Assembly (NCBI GenBank): GCA_009691465.1
Contig: SICK01000001.1
Span: 24,705-88,704, forward strand
Length of the DNA stretch: 64,000 nucleotides
Direction of reading: 5' to 3'
Origin: Candidatus Kaiserbacteria bacterium
GTDB lineage: Bacteria > Patescibacteriota > Minisyncoccia > Phycocordibacterales > SBAW01
Positions within the stretch are counted from its first letter, which is position 1. The number at the start of each line of letters is the position of its first letter. The notes beneath the pieces were generated by a model that did not search any database, was not told the DNA's origin, and was given only the letters and a program-made list of their open reading frames with translations. Below are positions 11,525-60,355 of the stretch, piece after piece. The translations under genes were made by a program, and so were the position numbers.

Positions 11525-11617
11525 CTCGAATTTTTAAGAAGCGTAGCGCCTATAAAAATTCAGAGTCCCGAACAAGCTTGCTTGGAGGGGCCGAATTTTT
11601 AAGCGTATTATATATCC

Positions 11618-11854
11618 ATGTATTTGGTCTATATCCTAGAGTGTAGCGACCGAACCTTATACACAGGTATAACAAATAATTTGGAACGCCGATTTTATCA
11701 ACACCAGAAAGGGGCTGGCGGTCATTACACAAGCTCCAAACAAGTAGTTAGAATTGTTTATACTGAAGAACACCCCGACCGCTCGTCGGCTTTAAAACGC
11801 GAAGCCGAAATAAAAAGCTGGCGCAGAGAAAAGAAACTAGCTTTATTTGAGTAA
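11618..11854 (+). CDS. GIY-YIG nuclease family protein (small, UPF0213/YhbQ-like)
   Basis: MYLVYILECSDRTLYTGITNNLERRFYQH...REAEIKSW is the GIY-YIG core. Confidence 0.85.
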   Translation: MYLVYILECSDRTLYTGITNNLERRFYQHQKGAGGHYTSSKQVVRIVYTEEHPDRSSALKREAEIKSWRREKKLALFE

Positions 11855-11964
11855 AATAAAAAAGACCAGAGCGAATTGTTCTGATCCTTGTTCGAATTCA
11901 GTCGTAATGCTTTTTTATAGAACTTAGTGTAATGTCCTGCTAGACACAAAGCGGGAGATTACCG

Positions 11965-12324
11965 ATGGACAAGTCGGCAAGCCGATTTGCTCTGAAGTTG
12001 CGGGAGCTTGGCTTCGAGAGGGTCGAGGGTGCAGACAAGGAATATCATGTCCGTACCACTACCGCTCGTATCGAGCGGACGCTCGGTAAGTCCTCAAGAC
12101 ACGAACGTCGAAAGTTAAGAAGCCTGATTCTGAGAATGCTGAAAGAGCAACCCTCCTACACCGTTACAGTGTTCCGGGATGGGACGGCATTGACAGAGGC
12201 GTCCGACGACACGGGCCAAATGTGGAAAGCCGAGGGAAATATCGACCTCCGTCCTTTTGGTTTTCTCAACAACGCCGAGTGGATCATCAACCACCACAAG
12301 GCGAAGGCTTCAACAGTTCACTAA
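11965..12324 (+). CDS. Hypothetical protein
   Basis: 119-aa ORF in the AT-richer region, followed by a strong terminator. No recognised motif. Confidence 0.55.
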   Translation: MDKSASRFALKLRELGFERVEGADKEYHVRTTTARIERTLGKSSRHERRKLRSLILRMLKEQPSYTVTVFRDGTALTEASDDTGQMWKAEGNIDLRPFGFLNNAEWIINHHKAKASTVH

Positions 12325-12358
12325 CCGCCCCTGTAAGTGGGGCGGCTTTTTCTTTTTC
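12325..12358 (+). terminator. Rho-independent terminator
   Basis: CCGCCCC-TGTAAGT-GGGGCGG followed by CTTTTTCTTTTT. Confidence 0.7.
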
Positions 12359-12470
12359 CTAATTGTTCTGAACGCATCCAACTGAGGCAGCCAGTGTGCA
12401 AAGCCAATAAAAAAGGGAGGTGTTTCGGAGTGCTACAATAGGAGTGTAGAAATTCATCTAAATCAACCCC

Positions 12471-24556: not shown

Positions 24557-24612
24557 CCCCTCTAACCCCCTCCGGATCTCACCCCCGTTTATCCCCACCC
24601 TCCCAATCCTTA

Positions 24613-24641
24613 TTCTAGCTTTTTGCAAAAACACGTAGTAA
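24613..24641 (+). promoter_or_regulatory. Promoter-operator module, copy 1
   Basis: TTCTAG (24613-18), 17-nt spacer containing the 12-bp palindrome TTTTTGCAAAAA (24620-31), TAGTAA (24636-41). Confidence 0.55.
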
Positions 24642-24725
24642 CGAGGTGAGTAGTAGCTAGTGGCGAGGCCGCGGCATTTTGCTATACTCCGACTAGATCT
24701 TCGACGGCTCGCAAAGGAGAAGCAC

Positions 24726-24953
24726 ATGCTCAAATGGATTCTGACCCTAATAGTCATGGCCGGCGACTTGGCACTCTTTGGGGCGGCCGGCACTATCCTG
24801 TATTTGATGCCGCACCATCCGCTCACCTGGATCGTTGTGGCTGCCGGCGGCTGGGAGTGGGCTACGACCGGCGGTTTTCTTGCATGGAGAGTTATGTTCA
24901 TCAGGCGCGAGCGGGACGCCTTCCGCAAGAGTGCCCAAAAGATAGGGTTTTGA
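24726..24953 (+). CDS. Small two-TM membrane protein
   Basis: AAGGAG SD 6 nt before ATG 24726. MLKWILTLIVMAGDLALFGAAG... Confidence 0.55.
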   Translation: MLKWILTLIVMAGDLALFGAAGTILYLMPHHPLTWIVVAAGGWEWATTGGFLAWRVMFIRRERDAFRKSAQKIGF

Positions 24954-24975
24954 CTCCGCCATGCGGAGTCTTTTT
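24952..24975 (+). terminator. Rho-independent terminator
   Basis: GACTCCGC-CAT-GCGGAGTC followed by TTTTT. Confidence 0.7.
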
Positions 24976-24990
24976 ATATCCACAATCTTG

Positions 24991-25019
24991 TTCTAGCTTT
25001 TTGCAAAAACACGTAATAG
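24991..25019 (+). promoter_or_regulatory. Promoter-operator module, copy 2 (arsR-family gene promoter)
   Basis: TTCTAG (24991-96), 17-nt spacer with TTTTTGCAAAAA (24998-25009), TAATAG (25014-19). ATG at 25029. Confidence 0.6.
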
Positions 25020-25028
25020 ACTTTTGGT

Positions 25029-25307
25029 ATGGCAAGTACACCTGCGGATTATCGGCGGATGGAGCGCGTGGTAAAGGGCTTCGCCAATCACCGCCGGCTC
25101 CAAATGCTCGACCTTTTGCGCAAGGAGCCCGAGCTTACGCTCGAGCAGATCGCCGAGCGGCTCAACATCGGCTACATGAACGCCTCCGACCACGTCCGGC
25201 GCATGGCCCTGGCGGGTCTGGTGATGAAGCGCAACGACGGCCCGCGCGTGCATCACAAACTCACGCCCCGCGCCGAGTCTATTCTAGCTTTTTGCAAAAA
25301 GCTGTAA
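25029..25307 (+). CDS. ArsR/SmtB-family winged-helix transcriptional regulator
   Basis: FANHRRLQMLDLLRKEPELTLEQIAERLNIGYMNASDHVRRMALAGLV is a typical ArsR HTH. Confidence 0.85.
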   Translation: MASTPADYRRMERVVKGFANHRRLQMLDLLRKEPELTLEQIAERLNIGYMNASDHVRRMALAGLVMKRNDGPRVHHKLTPRAESILAFCKKL

Positions 25308-25310
25308 TAA
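25282..25310 (+). promoter_or_regulatory. Promoter-operator module, copy 3 (inside the 3' end of the regulator gene)
   Basis: TTCTAG (25282-87), 17-nt spacer with TTTTTGCAAAAA (25289-300), TAATAA (25305-10). Confidence 0.45.
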
Positions 25311-25379
25311 GGCCCCGCGTTGCGGGGCTCCAATATCGCTTCAACCCCGCTACAGGGGGAGGGGGTGTATAGTTGGGAC

Positions 25380-25508
25380 ATGAGTAAAAAACAATTTGGG
25401 CCGGCGGGGACGAACTTTAACGCTCGGCGGCCGCAGGCCGCGCGGATGCAACCGGTGGTGCGGATGAAAGGGCTGCGCAGTACAAAGAAGCCCAAGGGTG
25501 GCAGGTAG
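25380..25508 (+). CDS. Possible small basic protein (42 aa)
   Basis: MSKKQFGPAGTNFNARRPQAARMQPVVRMKGLRSTKKPKGGR*. TATAGT (25368-73) lies 6 nt before the ATG. Confidence 0.3.
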   Translation: MSKKQFGPAGTNFNARRPQAARMQPVVRMKGLRSTKKPKGGR

Positions 25509-25529
25509 TCTGCGTTGTATACTTGAGGA

Positions 25530-25766
25530 ATGTCTCTTGAGAATCAACGCGACCAGATTATAGAAAATTTGGAGTTGCTCAACCGGCAGGTAGCCAAGCA
25601 AAACTCGCTGTCGCGGATGTTGTGGGTCGGCGTTATATACGGCATCGGCTTTTTTATCGGGTCGGTCATTATTGCGACCATTGCTTTTGGAATCTTAGGC
25701 CCGTGGTTTGGCCAAATCGGCTGGATACGCTCTGCGTTTGAAACAGGCTACGGACTTTTGCATTAA
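25530..25766 (+). CDS. Small coiled-coil plus TM protein
   Basis: TATACT (25518-23) lies 6 nt before the ATG. N-terminal helix followed by WVGVIYGIGFFIGSVIIATIAFGILGPW. Confidence 0.55.
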   Translation: MSLENQRDQIIENLELLNRQVAKQNSLSRMLWVGVIYGIGFFIGSVIIATIAFGILGPWFGQIGWIRSAFETGYGLLH

Positions 25767-35641: not shown

Positions 35642-35676
35642 AAAAGCCCCGCCTCCCGGCGGGGCTTTTGCTTTTT
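35642..35676 (+). terminator. Rho-independent terminator
   Basis: AAAAGCCCCGCC-TCCC-GGCGGGGCTTTT followed by GCTTTTT. Confidence 0.75.
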
Positions 35677-35694
35677 GCATGGTAAAATTTTTTT

Positions 35695-57306: not shown

Positions 57307-58416
57307 CTAGCTTGCTATAGAAAGATTTCCAACGGCTCGCAGCTCGGGGCCGGCGGTATCATTTAGCCCCGAGAGGGCGCGGGCGAGGGCGGCTTGGGCT
57401 ATCATGATGGCGTTGTCGCCCGTTATTGAGAGTTGCGGGAGGCGCAGGTCGATGTCGGGAAACTCCTCCAGTACGAGCGCCTGCAGCTTTTCGCGGATGT
57501 AGCGGTTGGCCGCCACCCCGCCGCCTATTACGAACGTCTGCGCGTTGGTCTGCTCCAACGCCTGGCGCGTTTTGGATACCATCACATCGGCGATGGCGTC
57601 CTCAAGCTCGGCAGCAAAGGCTGCGATCTCGTCGTTTGAGAGCTTTTGTATACCGCCGCGGTCGCGCAGCGCGTACAGAGCAGCAGTTTTTAGTCCCGAA
57701 AAAGAAAAATCACAGGTACCGGAGTTGATCATCGGTCGGGGGAGTTTGGGCACGGAAAAAGTTCCGGAAAAGGGAGTTGGGGTCGTGTTCATCTCTCCCT
57801 TTTCCGGAAGCTTTTTCCGTGCCTGTGCAGCCAGCTTAGAAATCTCCGGCCCGCCGGGATAGGGGAGCCCCAGCATGCGCGCGACTTTATCGAACGCCTC
57901 ACCGACGGCGTCATCCAGCGTCTTGCCGATGATCTCGTATTGCAGCCACTCTTTCATCAAAACAAACTCCGTGTGTCCGCCCGAAATCAAAAGCGCAAGC
58001 ACAGACATTCTAACGTTTTGCAAAATGTTTGAATGTTCGCCGCTTGGTTGGGCAAGAGAGGAGATTAAGTGGCCCTCCATGTGATTGGTGGGCAAGAGGG
58101 GGACGTTCTTTTCAGCCGCAACTTTTTTGGCAAACTCGATCCCGGTCCAGAGCGCCGGCTCGAGCCCCGGGCCGTGGGTCACCGCTACGGCGTCGAACTC
58201 CTCGTTTGCAAACTGCTCAAACAGCGCGGGTAGGTTCTTTTGGTGCTCGCGCTTGGCCAGGTTGGGGTATACCCCGCCGTAGGGCGAGTGGAGTAGGGCT
58301 TGCGAAAGCAGAGCGGCCTTTTTGGTCTCAAATGCAAAACCCTCGGAGGTTTTGGTGCCCTCAACTAAAGCAATTCCGGTCTCATCGCAGGAGGTTTCTA
58401 TTGCTAACACTTTCAT
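57307..58416 (-). CDS. tsaD: tRNA N6-adenosine threonylcarbamoyltransferase TsaD
   Basis: MKVLAIETSCDETGIALV, HMEGHL, GGGVAAN. The track N-terminal extension runs into tRNA-Val and was rejected. Confidence 0.9.
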   Translation of the reverse strand: MKVLAIETSCDETGIALVEGTKTSEGFAFETKKAALLSQALLHSPYGGVYPNLAKREHQKNLPALFEQFANEEFDAVAVTHGPGLEPALWTGIEFAKKVAAEKNVPLLPTNHMEGHLISSLAQPSGEHSNILQNVRMSVLALLISGGHTEFVLMKEWLQYEIIGKTLDDAVGEAFDKVARMLGLPYPGGPEISKLAAQARKKLPEKGEMNTTPTPFSGTFSVPKLPRPMINSGTCDFSFSGLKTAALYALRDRGGIQKLSNDEIAAFAAELEDAIADVMVSKTRQALEQTNAQTFVIGGGVAANRYIREKLQALVLEEFPDIDLRLPQLSITGDNAIMIAQAALARALSGLNDTAGPELRAVGNLSIAS

Positions 58417-59150: not shown

Positions 59151-59237
59151 CAATTTTTTTAGCCTTATTCCACAACGCCGTTTGGAGCACCCAAACGGGA
59201 AATTTTCGCGAGTTGGAACCATGCTAGCATTTAAGAC

Positions 59238-59708
59238 ATGGCGCGAATTGGTAATGTCATTTTTTGGATTATTGCTGTGGCCGTGGGGGGTTTCTTCTTA
59301 ATGATGTTTGCGGCTGGAATTATGTCTGGTTTGGGTACACAGAATCAGGCAAACGGAGTCTCAGTGACCGACTCAAATCCTATTGGGCTTCATATAATAA
59401 ACGAACAAGTAAAACTGGGAGACACCATTACGGTTGTATGGGATTCGACGAGAATTCCTCCTAATGCTCGGGGTATGGGCTTGCATATTGTCCGGCCAGA
59501 CCATAATTACGTAAGTGGAGTTGGGGTCGTAGGAATTGACCCAAGACTTGGCTCGTATCAACTGCAAAAGCTCCCCAGCGAACCTTTTTATGGATTTGTT
59601 GACGGCGGAGAGTACTACGTCAGCGCTCTGGTCACCGATACGGCAGACCCTAATGGGAATATACTCATGAAGGCGGATAGTGATTCCTTTCGAATAATCT
59701 CTCAATGA
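59238..59708 (+). CDS. Hypothetical membrane-anchored protein
   Basis: N-terminal TM VIFWIIAVAVGGFFLMMFAAGIM followed by a beta-rich domain. AT-richer codon usage. Confidence 0.5.
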   Translation: MARIGNVIFWIIAVAVGGFFLMMFAAGIMSGLGTQNQANGVSVTDSNPIGLHIINEQVKLGDTITVVWDSTRIPPNARGMGLHIVRPDHNYVSGVGVVGIDPRLGSYQLQKLPSEPFYGFVDGGEYYVSALVTDTADPNGNILMKADSDSFRIISQ

Positions 59709-60082
59709 AAAGACATTTCATATGGTTCTTCATTACAGTCGCCCTGCTCTGGGGGATTGGTGTAGCGGGTAGTATCGTCTTTGAGTGCCAAGGTGCTCTA
59801 GGTTCAGGAGTTCGGTGTGCCAAAGGAGGCCCACTTGGTTTGTTTATGGAAGGCTACTTGCCGAGTATGGAGATAGGTCTGATTTTCGTGATCTTCCTCG
59901 GCATTCCTGTAGCGATAGTTGTCGGTTCGATTATGCTTTTTCGAAGAATTTCAAAGCAAGAGAAAGTACAAAGTGTGTCTGCACCGAATTCAACTCAACA
60001 TACCTCATGGACAAAATACCTCCTGCTAATCCCTACAATAGGGATAGGTATTATATTTTTACTGAATATTCTGTTTGATTAA
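59705..60082 (+). CDS. Hypothetical membrane protein
   Basis: 4-nt overlap with the upstream ORF. Three hydrophobic helices. Confidence 0.5.
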   Translation: MKRHFIWFFITVALLWGIGVAGSIVFECQGALGSGVRCAKGGPLGLFMEGYLPSMEIGLIFVIFLGIPVAIVVGSIMLFRRISKQEKVQSVSAPNSTQHTSWTKYLLLIPTIGIGIIFLLNILFD

Positions 60083-60148
60083 TTCCCTCCCAAACCGCTG
60101 CCACTGATACAGCTCCCATACTAGCTGGTTCCAATTAGCTCCCACTTG

Positions 60149-60200
60149 GGTCAGCGCAGAAAAAGAGCCGCCATAAGGCGGCCTTTTTTGTACGCTGACC
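60149..60200 (+). terminator. Long composite hairpin / bidirectional terminator
   Basis: GGTCAGCG...AAAAAG.GCCGCC-ATAA-GGCGGC.TTTTTT...CGCTGACC. Confidence 0.6.
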
Positions 60201-60355
60201 ACTAAGCAAAGTCTGGGAGACTTTGCGGCCGGGAATCGAAAGCCGGAGCGGGCCCCAGACCAGCAGGTCTGGGAGCGAGGCAGGGTCGTGCGGCCAAAAT
60301 TGCGACGGCAATTTTGGAACGCCTGACCGATCCGTGCTTGCCTGCGGCAAGACAC

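Follow-up and report, generated by a model that had tools for sequence, protein, structure and literature searches.

A palindromic candidate operator at both ends of an ArsR/SmtB-type regulator gene in Parcubacteria, with dispersed copies in frame in housekeeping genes

Operators of the ArsR/SmtB family are known as 12-2-12 inverted repeats overlapping the promoter (PMC8790569). The present work concerns a related arrangement in a contig of Candidatus Kaiserbacteria bacterium (GenBank SICK01000001.1), in which the gene of a 92-amino-acid (aa) ArsR/SmtB-type regulator stands among three copies of one palindrome. The analysed DNA, called the window here, is the whole 64 kb stretch, and all coordinates refer to its forward strand. 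The regulator resembles the ArsR/SmtB autoregulators (SmtB, CzrA, ZiaR and AzuR, as well as the non-metal HlyU, BigR and SqrR) in being a small winged-helix protein with a dimerisation helix α5 and a 12-2-12 site at the promoter. Unlike in those systems, the presumed operator throughout the family also makes up the C-terminal codons and the stop of the gene that encodes the regulator, and copies of it occur in frame in housekeeping genes.

Other described systems share single traits with this locus. The auxiliary operators lac O2 in lacZ and gal OI in galE lie within coding sequence, a few hundred base pairs (bp) from the promoter operator. The second site described here has a comparable position and distance, but it belongs to the regulator's own gene, overlaps the stop codon, is conserved family-wide and shows unphased spacing. 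In Bacillus subtilis, the parS site of the ParB/parS system lies inside spo0J and further sites are found in coding regions, whereas AspA of pNOB8 is an ArsR-like centromere binder. The palindromic site in or next to the binder's own gene is common to these systems and the present one, and AspA is among the fold matches of the regulator; in contrast, no ParA/ParB is encoded nearby, several paralogues with different site variants are found per genome, and the promoter-proximal position points to transcription control.

Dispersed palindromes form another group of related systems. Rickettsia palindromic elements (RPE) are selfish palindromes of about 100–150 bp, which lie in frame in protein genes and have no known cognate DNA-binding protein. 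The copies described below are likewise in-frame palindromic segments in surface loops of conserved proteins, but they measure 30–40 bp (10–13 aa) and are tied to a regulator family. RPE are mentioned in PMC1779305, and in the open-access literature only the Rickettsia and organelle cases of in-frame palindromic elements were found. In the REP/REPIN-RAYT systems, a single gene is flanked by two palindromes of 20–40 bp, which are dispersed in the genome (PMC2817692, PMC3116915). The regulator gene similarly lies between two copies of a dispersed palindrome, the symmetry of which is retained through paired changes. However, it encodes a 92-aa winged helix-turn-helix (wHTH) protein in place of an HUH/Y1 (IS200/IS605-type) transposase, the copy number of the palindrome looks low, one flanking copy is within the coding sequence and some copies are intragenic. 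No description of the regulator family, the motif or the layout was found in the open-access literature on Parcubacteria, Patescibacteria or the candidate phyla radiation (CPR). New here are the presumed operator inside the regulator's own 3′ coding end and its copies in coding sequences; otherwise the system would work like an ArsR/SmtB autoregulator.

The regulator and the palindromes of the window

The palindromes are best read, with moderate confidence, as operators of the presumably dimeric ArsR/SmtB-type autoregulator encoded among them, an operator which has also spread as a small repeat. The features of the window on which this reading is built are the following:

25029..25307, plus strand: regulator gene, 92 aa, ArsR/SmtB-type winged helix-turn-helix, HlyU-like
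24609..24642: palindrome copy 1, centre 24625/24626, 17.3 bits; left arm and core intact (TTATTCTAGCTTTTTG and CAAAAA), right arm degenerate (CACGTAGTAAC)
24987..25020: palindrome copy 2, centre 25003/25004, 25 nucleotides (nt) before the ATG, 22.3 bits; likely operator within the promoter of the regulator gene itself
25278..25311: palindrome copy 3, centre 25294/25295, 44.0 bits; codons S84-L92 and stop TAA; best match to the family consensus
58004..58037: variant palindrome CATTCTAACGTTTTGCAAAATGTTTGAATG, in frame in tsaD (minus strand, 57307-58416); encodes HSNILQNVRM between HMEGH and SGGHT
25017..25022, plus strand: predicted -10 box TAGACT of the regulator gene, 6 nt ahead of the leaderless ATG and partly shared with the outer end of copy 2

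The initial annotation of this DNA had described three modules of the form TTCTAG-N17-TARTAR, and their coordinates are right: the pattern occurs at 24613, 24991 and 25282 and nowhere else in the window, for which the expectation is 0.26 even with one mismatch allowed. Its placement of copy 2 with the end 9 nt before the ATG at 25029, its reading of copy 3 as the codons of ..ILAFCKKL* and the flanks shared by copies 1 and 2 hold as well. The latter belong to a 32-nt repeat family delimited by a repeat finder, with identities of 100, 94 and 81% (94% between copies 1 and 2, 81% for copy 3). The core TTTTTGCAAAAA has exactly three occurrences in the window, at 24620, 24998 and 25289; when up to one mismatch is accepted, seven matches are found against 0.22 expected, a number reached in none of 100 shuffles. 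The 12-bp palindrome of that annotation is present in all three copies, but it was drawn too small. The full site is a 30–34 bp palindrome of 12-2-12 geometry, TTCTAGnnTTTT-GC-AAAAnnCTAGAA, and copy 3 forms a near-palindrome of 15+15 nt (TATTCTAGCTTTTTG and CAAAAAGCTGTAATA).

A 34-nt weight matrix was made from the homologous loci, and sites were listed from 8 bits up; the best score in shuffled windows is below 0. The matrix scan adds the fourth, variant site in tsaD (28.6 bits). The right arm of copy 2 is degenerate in the same manner as that of copy 1, and because of these degenerate arms both copies reach only 17–22 bits. An alternative right arm, ACGTAA(T)/TTACGTAAT for CTAGAA, recurs in promoter copies from several regulator loci (L002, L028, L035 and L058, and in the window copies 1 and 2), and it could reflect a hybrid site or a second factor. 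The additional half-site CTTTTTGCA that had been suggested before the MutY-like gene (35671-35679) is best treated as chance, as it falls below the 8-bit threshold of the matrix and lies within a terminator T-tract. The MutY/Nth homologue of locus L182 has a full in-frame palindrome, and the MutY-like gene of the window is without it (4-aa gap).

Profile matches and fold agree with the earlier assignment of the regulator to the ArsR family. Pfam profiles HTH_24, HTH_5 (arsR) and MarR match above their cut-offs; these winged-helix matches are borderline, with a narrow margin for HTH_5 (22.2 vs. 22), and HTH_20 stays just below (26.9 vs. 27). The search of the PDB with a profile of 20 homologues gives HlyU (1.8e-8), the ArsR-family Mb0332 protein (2e-7), CadC (3e-7) and CzrA (2e-5), and the NCBI name of P0001 is ArsR family regulator. 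The AF2 monomer model (pLDDT 86.4) consists of helices 5–32, 38–45 and 49–61, a beta-hairpin at 65–78 and a helix at 80–91, and it shows α1, α3, αR, wing and α5, the element order of ArsR/SmtB proteins. The top matches in Foldseek are 2kko, CzrA, SmtB, CadC, HlyU and SqrR.

The alignment of 20 members sets the family apart from the described ArsR/SmtB sensors: neither a metal site (α3N CxC; α5 Asp/His/His/Glu, D/H-x-H...H-x2-E) nor the Cys pair of HlyU/BigR/SqrR is present. Helix α3 is without Cys, α5 is without the His/Asp/Glu pattern, and the single invariant cysteine is Cys89, the TGC codon of which is the palindrome centre. The metal site is a feature that marks ArsR/SmtB subgroups, not family membership. 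The recognition helix GYENASDH[VIL]RK is essentially invariant; the search for helix changes matching the operator variants was rejected on this ground.

Conservation at both ends of the regulator gene

The homologue search listed 715 proteins at E <1e-3, and the best 120 of them are 66–100% identical to the query; an NCBI protein of a Candidatus Kaiserbacteria contig agrees with it at every residue. The comparison covers 80 genome loci from at least seven candidate phyla of Parcubacteria, with Kaiser-, Adler-, Nomura-, Taylor- and Niyogi-bacteria among the sampled hosts, and 79 regulator genes were read at the DNA level. In almost every locus a palindrome of about 30 bp, with the consensus TCTATTCTAGTGTTTTGCAAAACACTAGAATAGA, is found at the gene ends.

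At the 5′ end, the palindrome lies at most 95 nt upstream in 75 of the 79 genes, and in 33 of these it is centred 29–31 nt before the ATG. The start is preceded by TAnnnT at a distance of 4–10 nt in 63/79 genes, in 41 of them at exactly 6 nt, and by a Shine-Dalgarno-like sequence in only one (1/79). The promoter palindrome ends, in the modal case, 3 nt before the -10 box. In the family, the 12-2-12 inverted repeat at the promoter is centred about 30 nt before a leaderless start. Such a placement of the palindrome, close to the -10 box, is a repressor-type position as judged from sequence. The arms of the non-coding 5′ sites co-vary beyond column composition at offsets 6, 7, 8, 10, 12, 15, 17 and 18. 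Autoregulation, which was already part of the initial annotation, gains from this comparison: the palindrome is conserved at a fixed place of the core promoter, upstream of the -10 box and the leaderless start, in 75/79 homologous genes, which makes the predicted autoregulation of the regulator well supported. In comparative work, this pattern is the usual mark of a repressor that controls its own gene through an operator.

At the 3′ end, the palindrome makes up the last 9–10 codons and the stop in each of the 79 genes read. In codons, it reads S-I-L-V-F-C-K-x-L-x-stop (TCT ATT CTA GTG TTT TGC AAA AGA CTG CAA TAG), and the C-terminus [IV]L[VAM]FCK followed by 1–4 residues is found in 120/120 of the best protein homologues. 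Conserved codons elsewhere in the gene have near-random synonymous use (relative entropy mostly about 0.7–1.0, with a low of 0.53), and the synonymous use is frozen only in codons 84–90:

Ser84: TCT in 48/50
Leu86: CTA in 75/79
Phe88: TTT in 79/79
Cys89: TGC in 78/79
Lys90: AAA in 79/79

Since the codons are frozen at the 3′ copy, the selection acts there on the nucleotide sequence, beyond the encoded peptide.

In another explanation, the palindrome acts as an RNA hairpin, which would stabilise, terminate or process the regulator mRNA at its 3′ end and other transcripts as well, with the DNA as its template only. We consider this improbable. Copy 3 does fold, with a strong G+C hairpin directly after it (-23.8 kcal/mol, z = -2.1, for the RNA fold of 25270–25335), paired changes preserve the symmetry, and REP-type hairpins are proposed to stabilise mRNA (PMC3733652). 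On the other hand, the conserved 5′ copy precedes the -10 box of a leaderless gene and should therefore be outside that transcript, the stem is A+T-rich and has no U-tract, and no RNA hairpin folds at copies 1 and 2 (z = +0.5 to +0.7; z = +0.70 for copy 1). Most 3′ copies are imperfect, since offset 6 pairs in 22% only and offsets 10/11 carry T.G plus C.C mismatches, and each arm is conserved separately; in many of them the left arm is kept though the right arm differs (TTCTAG...CTGCAA). The missing RNA fold of copies 1 and 2, together with the left arm kept when the right one differs, indicates that half-sites matter and not their pairing. The Rfam scan of the whole window gave tRNAs and RNase P only, with no match at the locus.

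The two copies of a gene are linked to each other and to their regulator. Within one gene, the 5′ and 3′ copies agree better than copies from different genomes do (26.6 vs. 24.0 of 30 positions; 0/10000 permutations). Extra sites number 26 in the 282 kb within 2 kb of a regulator gene and 2 in the 241 kb at 2–4 kb from it, and mostly bear the neighbouring regulator's own variant (19/29 have rank 0–1 among 77). Two to three regulator paralogues are present in seven assemblies (MEWX01, MFLD01, MFLL01, JAUSGQ01, JAUSHX01, CAYHST01 and CAYHJR01), and the site variants of paralogues within one genome differ where two sites were compared.

The surroundings of the gene vary. A conserved regulon was sought among the neighbours by clustering the open reading frames (ORFs) within 3 kb of the 79 regulator genes, and this candidate was rejected, as no conserved partner appeared; the commonest families are a 100-aa protein (11/79 loci), TspO (10) and YgjP/DUF45 (9). 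Transposase, recombinase or ParA/ParB partners conserved near the regulator are absent from these 79 neighbourhoods.

A gene bounded by two like sites about 290 bp apart in a variable neighbourhood could be an excisable or invertible cassette, with the palindromes as recombinase crossover sites of the serine-recombinase 12-2-12 type or of the Xer/dif-like type. Serine-invertase sites also have the 12-2-12 form with a 2-bp centre, and large serine recombinase genes are found in L201, adjoining tsaD, and, about 5 kb upstream, in L207. This explanation is nevertheless very unlikely: conserved recombinases are absent from the surroundings of the regulator, the symmetric GC centre gives no directionality, and neither the intragenic copies in reading frame nor the constant placement at the -10 box is explained by it.

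Dispersed and intragenic copies of the palindrome

The scan of metagenome contigs for the perfect palindrome yielded at least 141 sites on at least 120 stretches. The 141 sites listed include 18 found at the 5′ end of a regulator homologue and 25 found at the 3′ end of one, and among them an ORF with its stop codon inside the palindrome is always a regulator homologue. In-frame copies are hosted by the genes of MiaA, PyrC, IleRS (ileS), TruB, Ddl, Tgt, MutY/Nth and RibE, where the palindrome is read as [YH]SS[IV]LQNTR[IM], and also by that of TsaD. Several intragenic copies replace sequence of near-equal length (no gap in MiaA, 2–4 aa elsewhere), some of them substitute equal-length sequence, and the insertion boundaries are blurred without a visible target-site duplication. 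Two further candidates were rejected. A fixed site-to-start distance is not seen at the dispersed sites, as gene starts are enriched 2–3-fold at all distances of 18–120 nt with no sharp peak; the ORF calling behind this count is crude and leaves 27/66 dispersed sites ambiguous. The phage origin was discarded, since both palindrome and regulator are absent from the viral contigs of IMG/VR.

The tsaD gene, an essential gene of tRNA modification, provides an example of such a copy in an orthologous setting. Among 119 TsaD orthologues, the loop has 23 aa when empty, the intact peptide xLQ[NK] is present in 22, and others show decayed relics or the window-type variant HSSFLQKAVI. L203 has the empty form (23 aa); the loop measures 36 aa in L201 (+39 nt) and 33 aa in L202 (+30 nt), and is filled in L201, L202, L204, L205 and L206, with different variants in different lineages; the orthologous site is therefore polymorphic for an in-frame insertion. 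The L202 copy has 29 nt in common with copy 3 of the window. The window's own tsaD copy belongs to the 'TAAC' class, and the matching regulator paralogue is not in the window. It is the only site of the window outside the regulator locus, and in 149 kb around the tsaD of eight genomes the tsaD copies are the sole sites. Mobile-type genes are located in the loci flanking tsaD (L202 11505-12970, L201 386-1933, L207 3192-4907 and L203 7143-7880). Their types are a reverse transcriptase with bAvd pair (diversity-generating retroelement-like, adjoining tsaD), the large serine recombinases already named for L201 and L207, and a LAGLIDADG endonuclease (about 2 kb upstream).

The palindrome family is spread through Parcubacteria genomes, in-frame housekeeping copies included, and the operator thus also behaves as a small dispersed repeat. 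In the main rival explanation, the palindrome is above all a repeat (like REP, miniature inverted-repeat transposable elements or RPE) that propagates itself or is maintained for its structure, and the regulator gene is its home copy. Such a repeat would insert between genes and, where the frame is tolerated, within coding sequences. The wHTH protein would then serve the element by binding, protection or mobilisation in trans, not control host genes, and the symmetry would be kept by a hairpin or cruciform. We regard this as possible but rather unlikely, and it does not exclude the operator reading. The dispersed perfect copies, many of them without a regulator homologue on the same stretch, speak for it, as do the in-frame copies in MiaA, PyrC, IleRS, TruB, Ddl, Tgt, MutY, RibE and TsaD and the tsaD loop that is empty, filled or decayed by lineage. 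The arm symmetry exceeds the expectation from column composition, with paired changes in L207 and L208, the neighbours of the regulator are not conserved while several genomes hold 2–3 paralogues, and the arrangement of RAYT genes between REPs is well established (PMC2817692). The fixed position of the 5′ copy relative to the -10 box is, however, not expected of a selfish repeat. The 92-aa wHTH protein is without a catalytic domain, and no transposase or recombinase is conserved nearby. Target-site duplications are lacking and several copies replace near-equal length, the copy number is low both in the 64 kb window and in the 149 kb around tsaD, the sites cluster within 2 kb of regulator genes, and the palindrome is absent from viral contigs.

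Several results weigh against the palindromes being operators of the regulator. Copies 1 and 2 are weak sites by the weight matrix, and for 98 of the 141 perfect sites listed, no regulator homologue was detected on the stretch that carries them. Of the 66 evaluable sites, about 20 are inside coding sequences of unrelated housekeeping genes, which is odd for a local repressor. Helical phasing is not seen between the 5′ and 3′ copies (spacing 283–357 bp), which lends looping no support but does not refute it. The recognition helix hardly varies, yet the arms vary symmetrically between sites, and the tsaD relics of L207 and L208 stay symmetric through paired changes. In these relics, T>C and A>G changes occurring in pairs have turned the core TTTTGCAAAA into TTCTGCAGAA or TTCTTGAGAA, and the peptide remains ILQN/ILEN. 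Taken together, the invariant helix with symmetric arm variation and the paired changes in decayed tsaD copies fit selection for pairing, or copying from arm to arm, better than simple base readout. The initial annotation had held that modules scattered over unrelated loci would indicate a generic repeat. Such scattering is seen in part across the lineage, in the 98/141 sites without a regulator homologue detected on their stretch; against it stands the strong enrichment of sites in the 2 kb around regulator genes.

Local promoters, proposed mode of action and meaning

The window has about 57% G+C. Where a gap precedes a gene, a TAnnnT box usually stands 5–9 nt before the ATG, often after TG, without Shine-Dalgarno sequence and with no recognisable -35 element. 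Most window genes appear leaderless; examples of such starts are 5994, 14958, 18954, 24239, 25380, 25530, 26371, 42617, 43294, 52680 and 53571. DUF5652 and other small membrane proteins are also encoded in the window, and long stretches without a called gene or Rfam match are found at 11525-12470 and 59152-60313. Around the regulator gene, the following features are present, among them the gene of a small protein with two transmembrane segments (2-TM):

24680..24688, plus strand: predicted extended -10 box TGcTATACT of the 2-TM gene, the same -10 type as in most window genes
24713-24719, plus strand: Shine-Dalgarno sequence AAAGGAG of the 2-TM gene
24726..24953, plus strand: small 2-TM protein gene, 75 aa, MLKWILT..., lineage-specific
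24952..24970, plus strand: terminator-like hairpin and T-tract ending the 2-TM gene
25281..25286, minus strand: predicted -10-like TAGAAT (the left arm of copy 3) that would face into the regulator gene
25311..25329, plus strand: G+C-rich hairpin directly after the regulator stop, no U-tract
25368-25373, plus strand: TATAGT box preceding the leaderless 42-aa basic ORF 25380-25508
25518-25523, plus strand: TATACT box preceding the 78-aa membrane ORF 25530-25766

The 2-TM protein has no Pfam match for residues 5–75 and no homologue among about 200 related loci. Homologues of both small downstream ORFs are present in related loci. The 42-aa ORF is very basic (MSKKQFGPAGTNFNARRPQAARMQPVVRMKGLRSTKKPKGGR), with homologues in L002 (68%) and L043, and is probably a real small protein. 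The hairpin at 25311–25329 probably terminates transcription of the regulator gene. The consensus scan finds ATTACA-16-TAGAAT at 25308–25281 of the minus strand. The left arm of copy 3 corresponds family-wide to the codons TCT ATT CTA, and TAGAAT as a -10 box directed into the regulator gene is a speculative assignment.

These local promoters bear on the model of the initial annotation, in which the three copies are sigma-70 promoters with TTCTAG as the -35 element, a 17-nt spacer holding the 12-bp operator, and TARTAR as the -10 box. The spacing of exactly 17 nt in all three copies fits this model. The right arm of the family, TAGAAT, is -10-like and is followed by an ATG after 4–9 nt in a minority of sites, and in 7 of the 59 loci having both a promoter site and an assigned box the end of the palindrome and the -10 box overlap, as in the window. 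The two hexamers are, however, the symmetric outer arms of the palindrome: TTCTAG agrees with TTGACA at 2/6 positions and mirrors the right arm, and TAGTAA, TAATAG and TAATAA do not end in the T that closes the organism's TAnnnT boxes, which stand without a conserved -35. The TAGACT box of the regulator gene lies 3 nt to the right of the TAATAG chosen before. The 2-TM gene and the small ORFs downstream have their own -10 boxes, and copy 3 is kept as the 3′ end of the gene irrespective of the sequence that follows. The three-promoter model can therefore be given hardly any credence. For copy 3, the proposed role as a promoter of the downstream ORFs is given up in favour of a family-wide gene-end element.

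There is no TAnnnT-type box at copy 1. As the 2-TM gene has its own TGcTATACT, copy 1 falls near -70: about 70 nt separate its centre from the predicted start point downstream.

What is observed is a palindrome that combines 12-2-12 geometry, a repressor-type promoter position and dispersed copies. Its reading as the operator of the encoded regulator suggests the following mode of action. Binding of the palindrome by the regulator is likely, while repression, as the sign of the regulation, is put forward with less confidence. Copy 2 spans the -35/spacer region as far as the -10 box TAGACT, which it touches, and the regulator bound there would shut off its own transcription. Copy 1, a near-duplicate of copy 2, would bring the neighbouring 2-TM gene under control, and it is a probable extra local target. 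Copy 3 may act as an auxiliary operator, which would either loop with copy 2 about 290 bp away or block transcription at the gene end; this is the weakest step of the proposal. From the earlier description of an autoregulated repressor with two additional targets, the autoregulation thus remains, with the promoter palindrome conserved in 75/79 genes, and copy 3 drops out as a target promoter.

A more far-reaching extension, which we offer only tentatively, is the self-spreading regulatory unit composed of the repressor gene and its operator. The operator is physically part of the repressor gene, as its last codons and stop, so that gene and site are inherited and copied together. A mechanism based on hairpins or on copying would seed further operators around the genome; some would fall in frame within essential genes and then be retained by selection. 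If true, such a unit would be a REP/RAYT-like partnership based on a winged-helix repressor instead of a transposase, and a route for the tiny CPR genomes to wire and rewire their regulons.

The operator doubling as the C-terminal codons and the stop of its repressor would be a striking case of dual coding and a natural system in which the constraints on a protein and on a DNA site can be compared. The in-frame copies in tsaD, pyrC, miaA and ileS indicate that short palindromic DNA can persist in essential genes of reduced genomes. For annotation, this means that loop insertions in conserved enzymes may be DNA elements and not protein features, and the intragenic copies raise the question of how transcription-factor sites originate. 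Parcubacteria, as members of the CPR, have very few regulators and are not growable alone. For such organisms, a computable motif offers a handle on gene control and on regulon prediction across hundreds of genomes.

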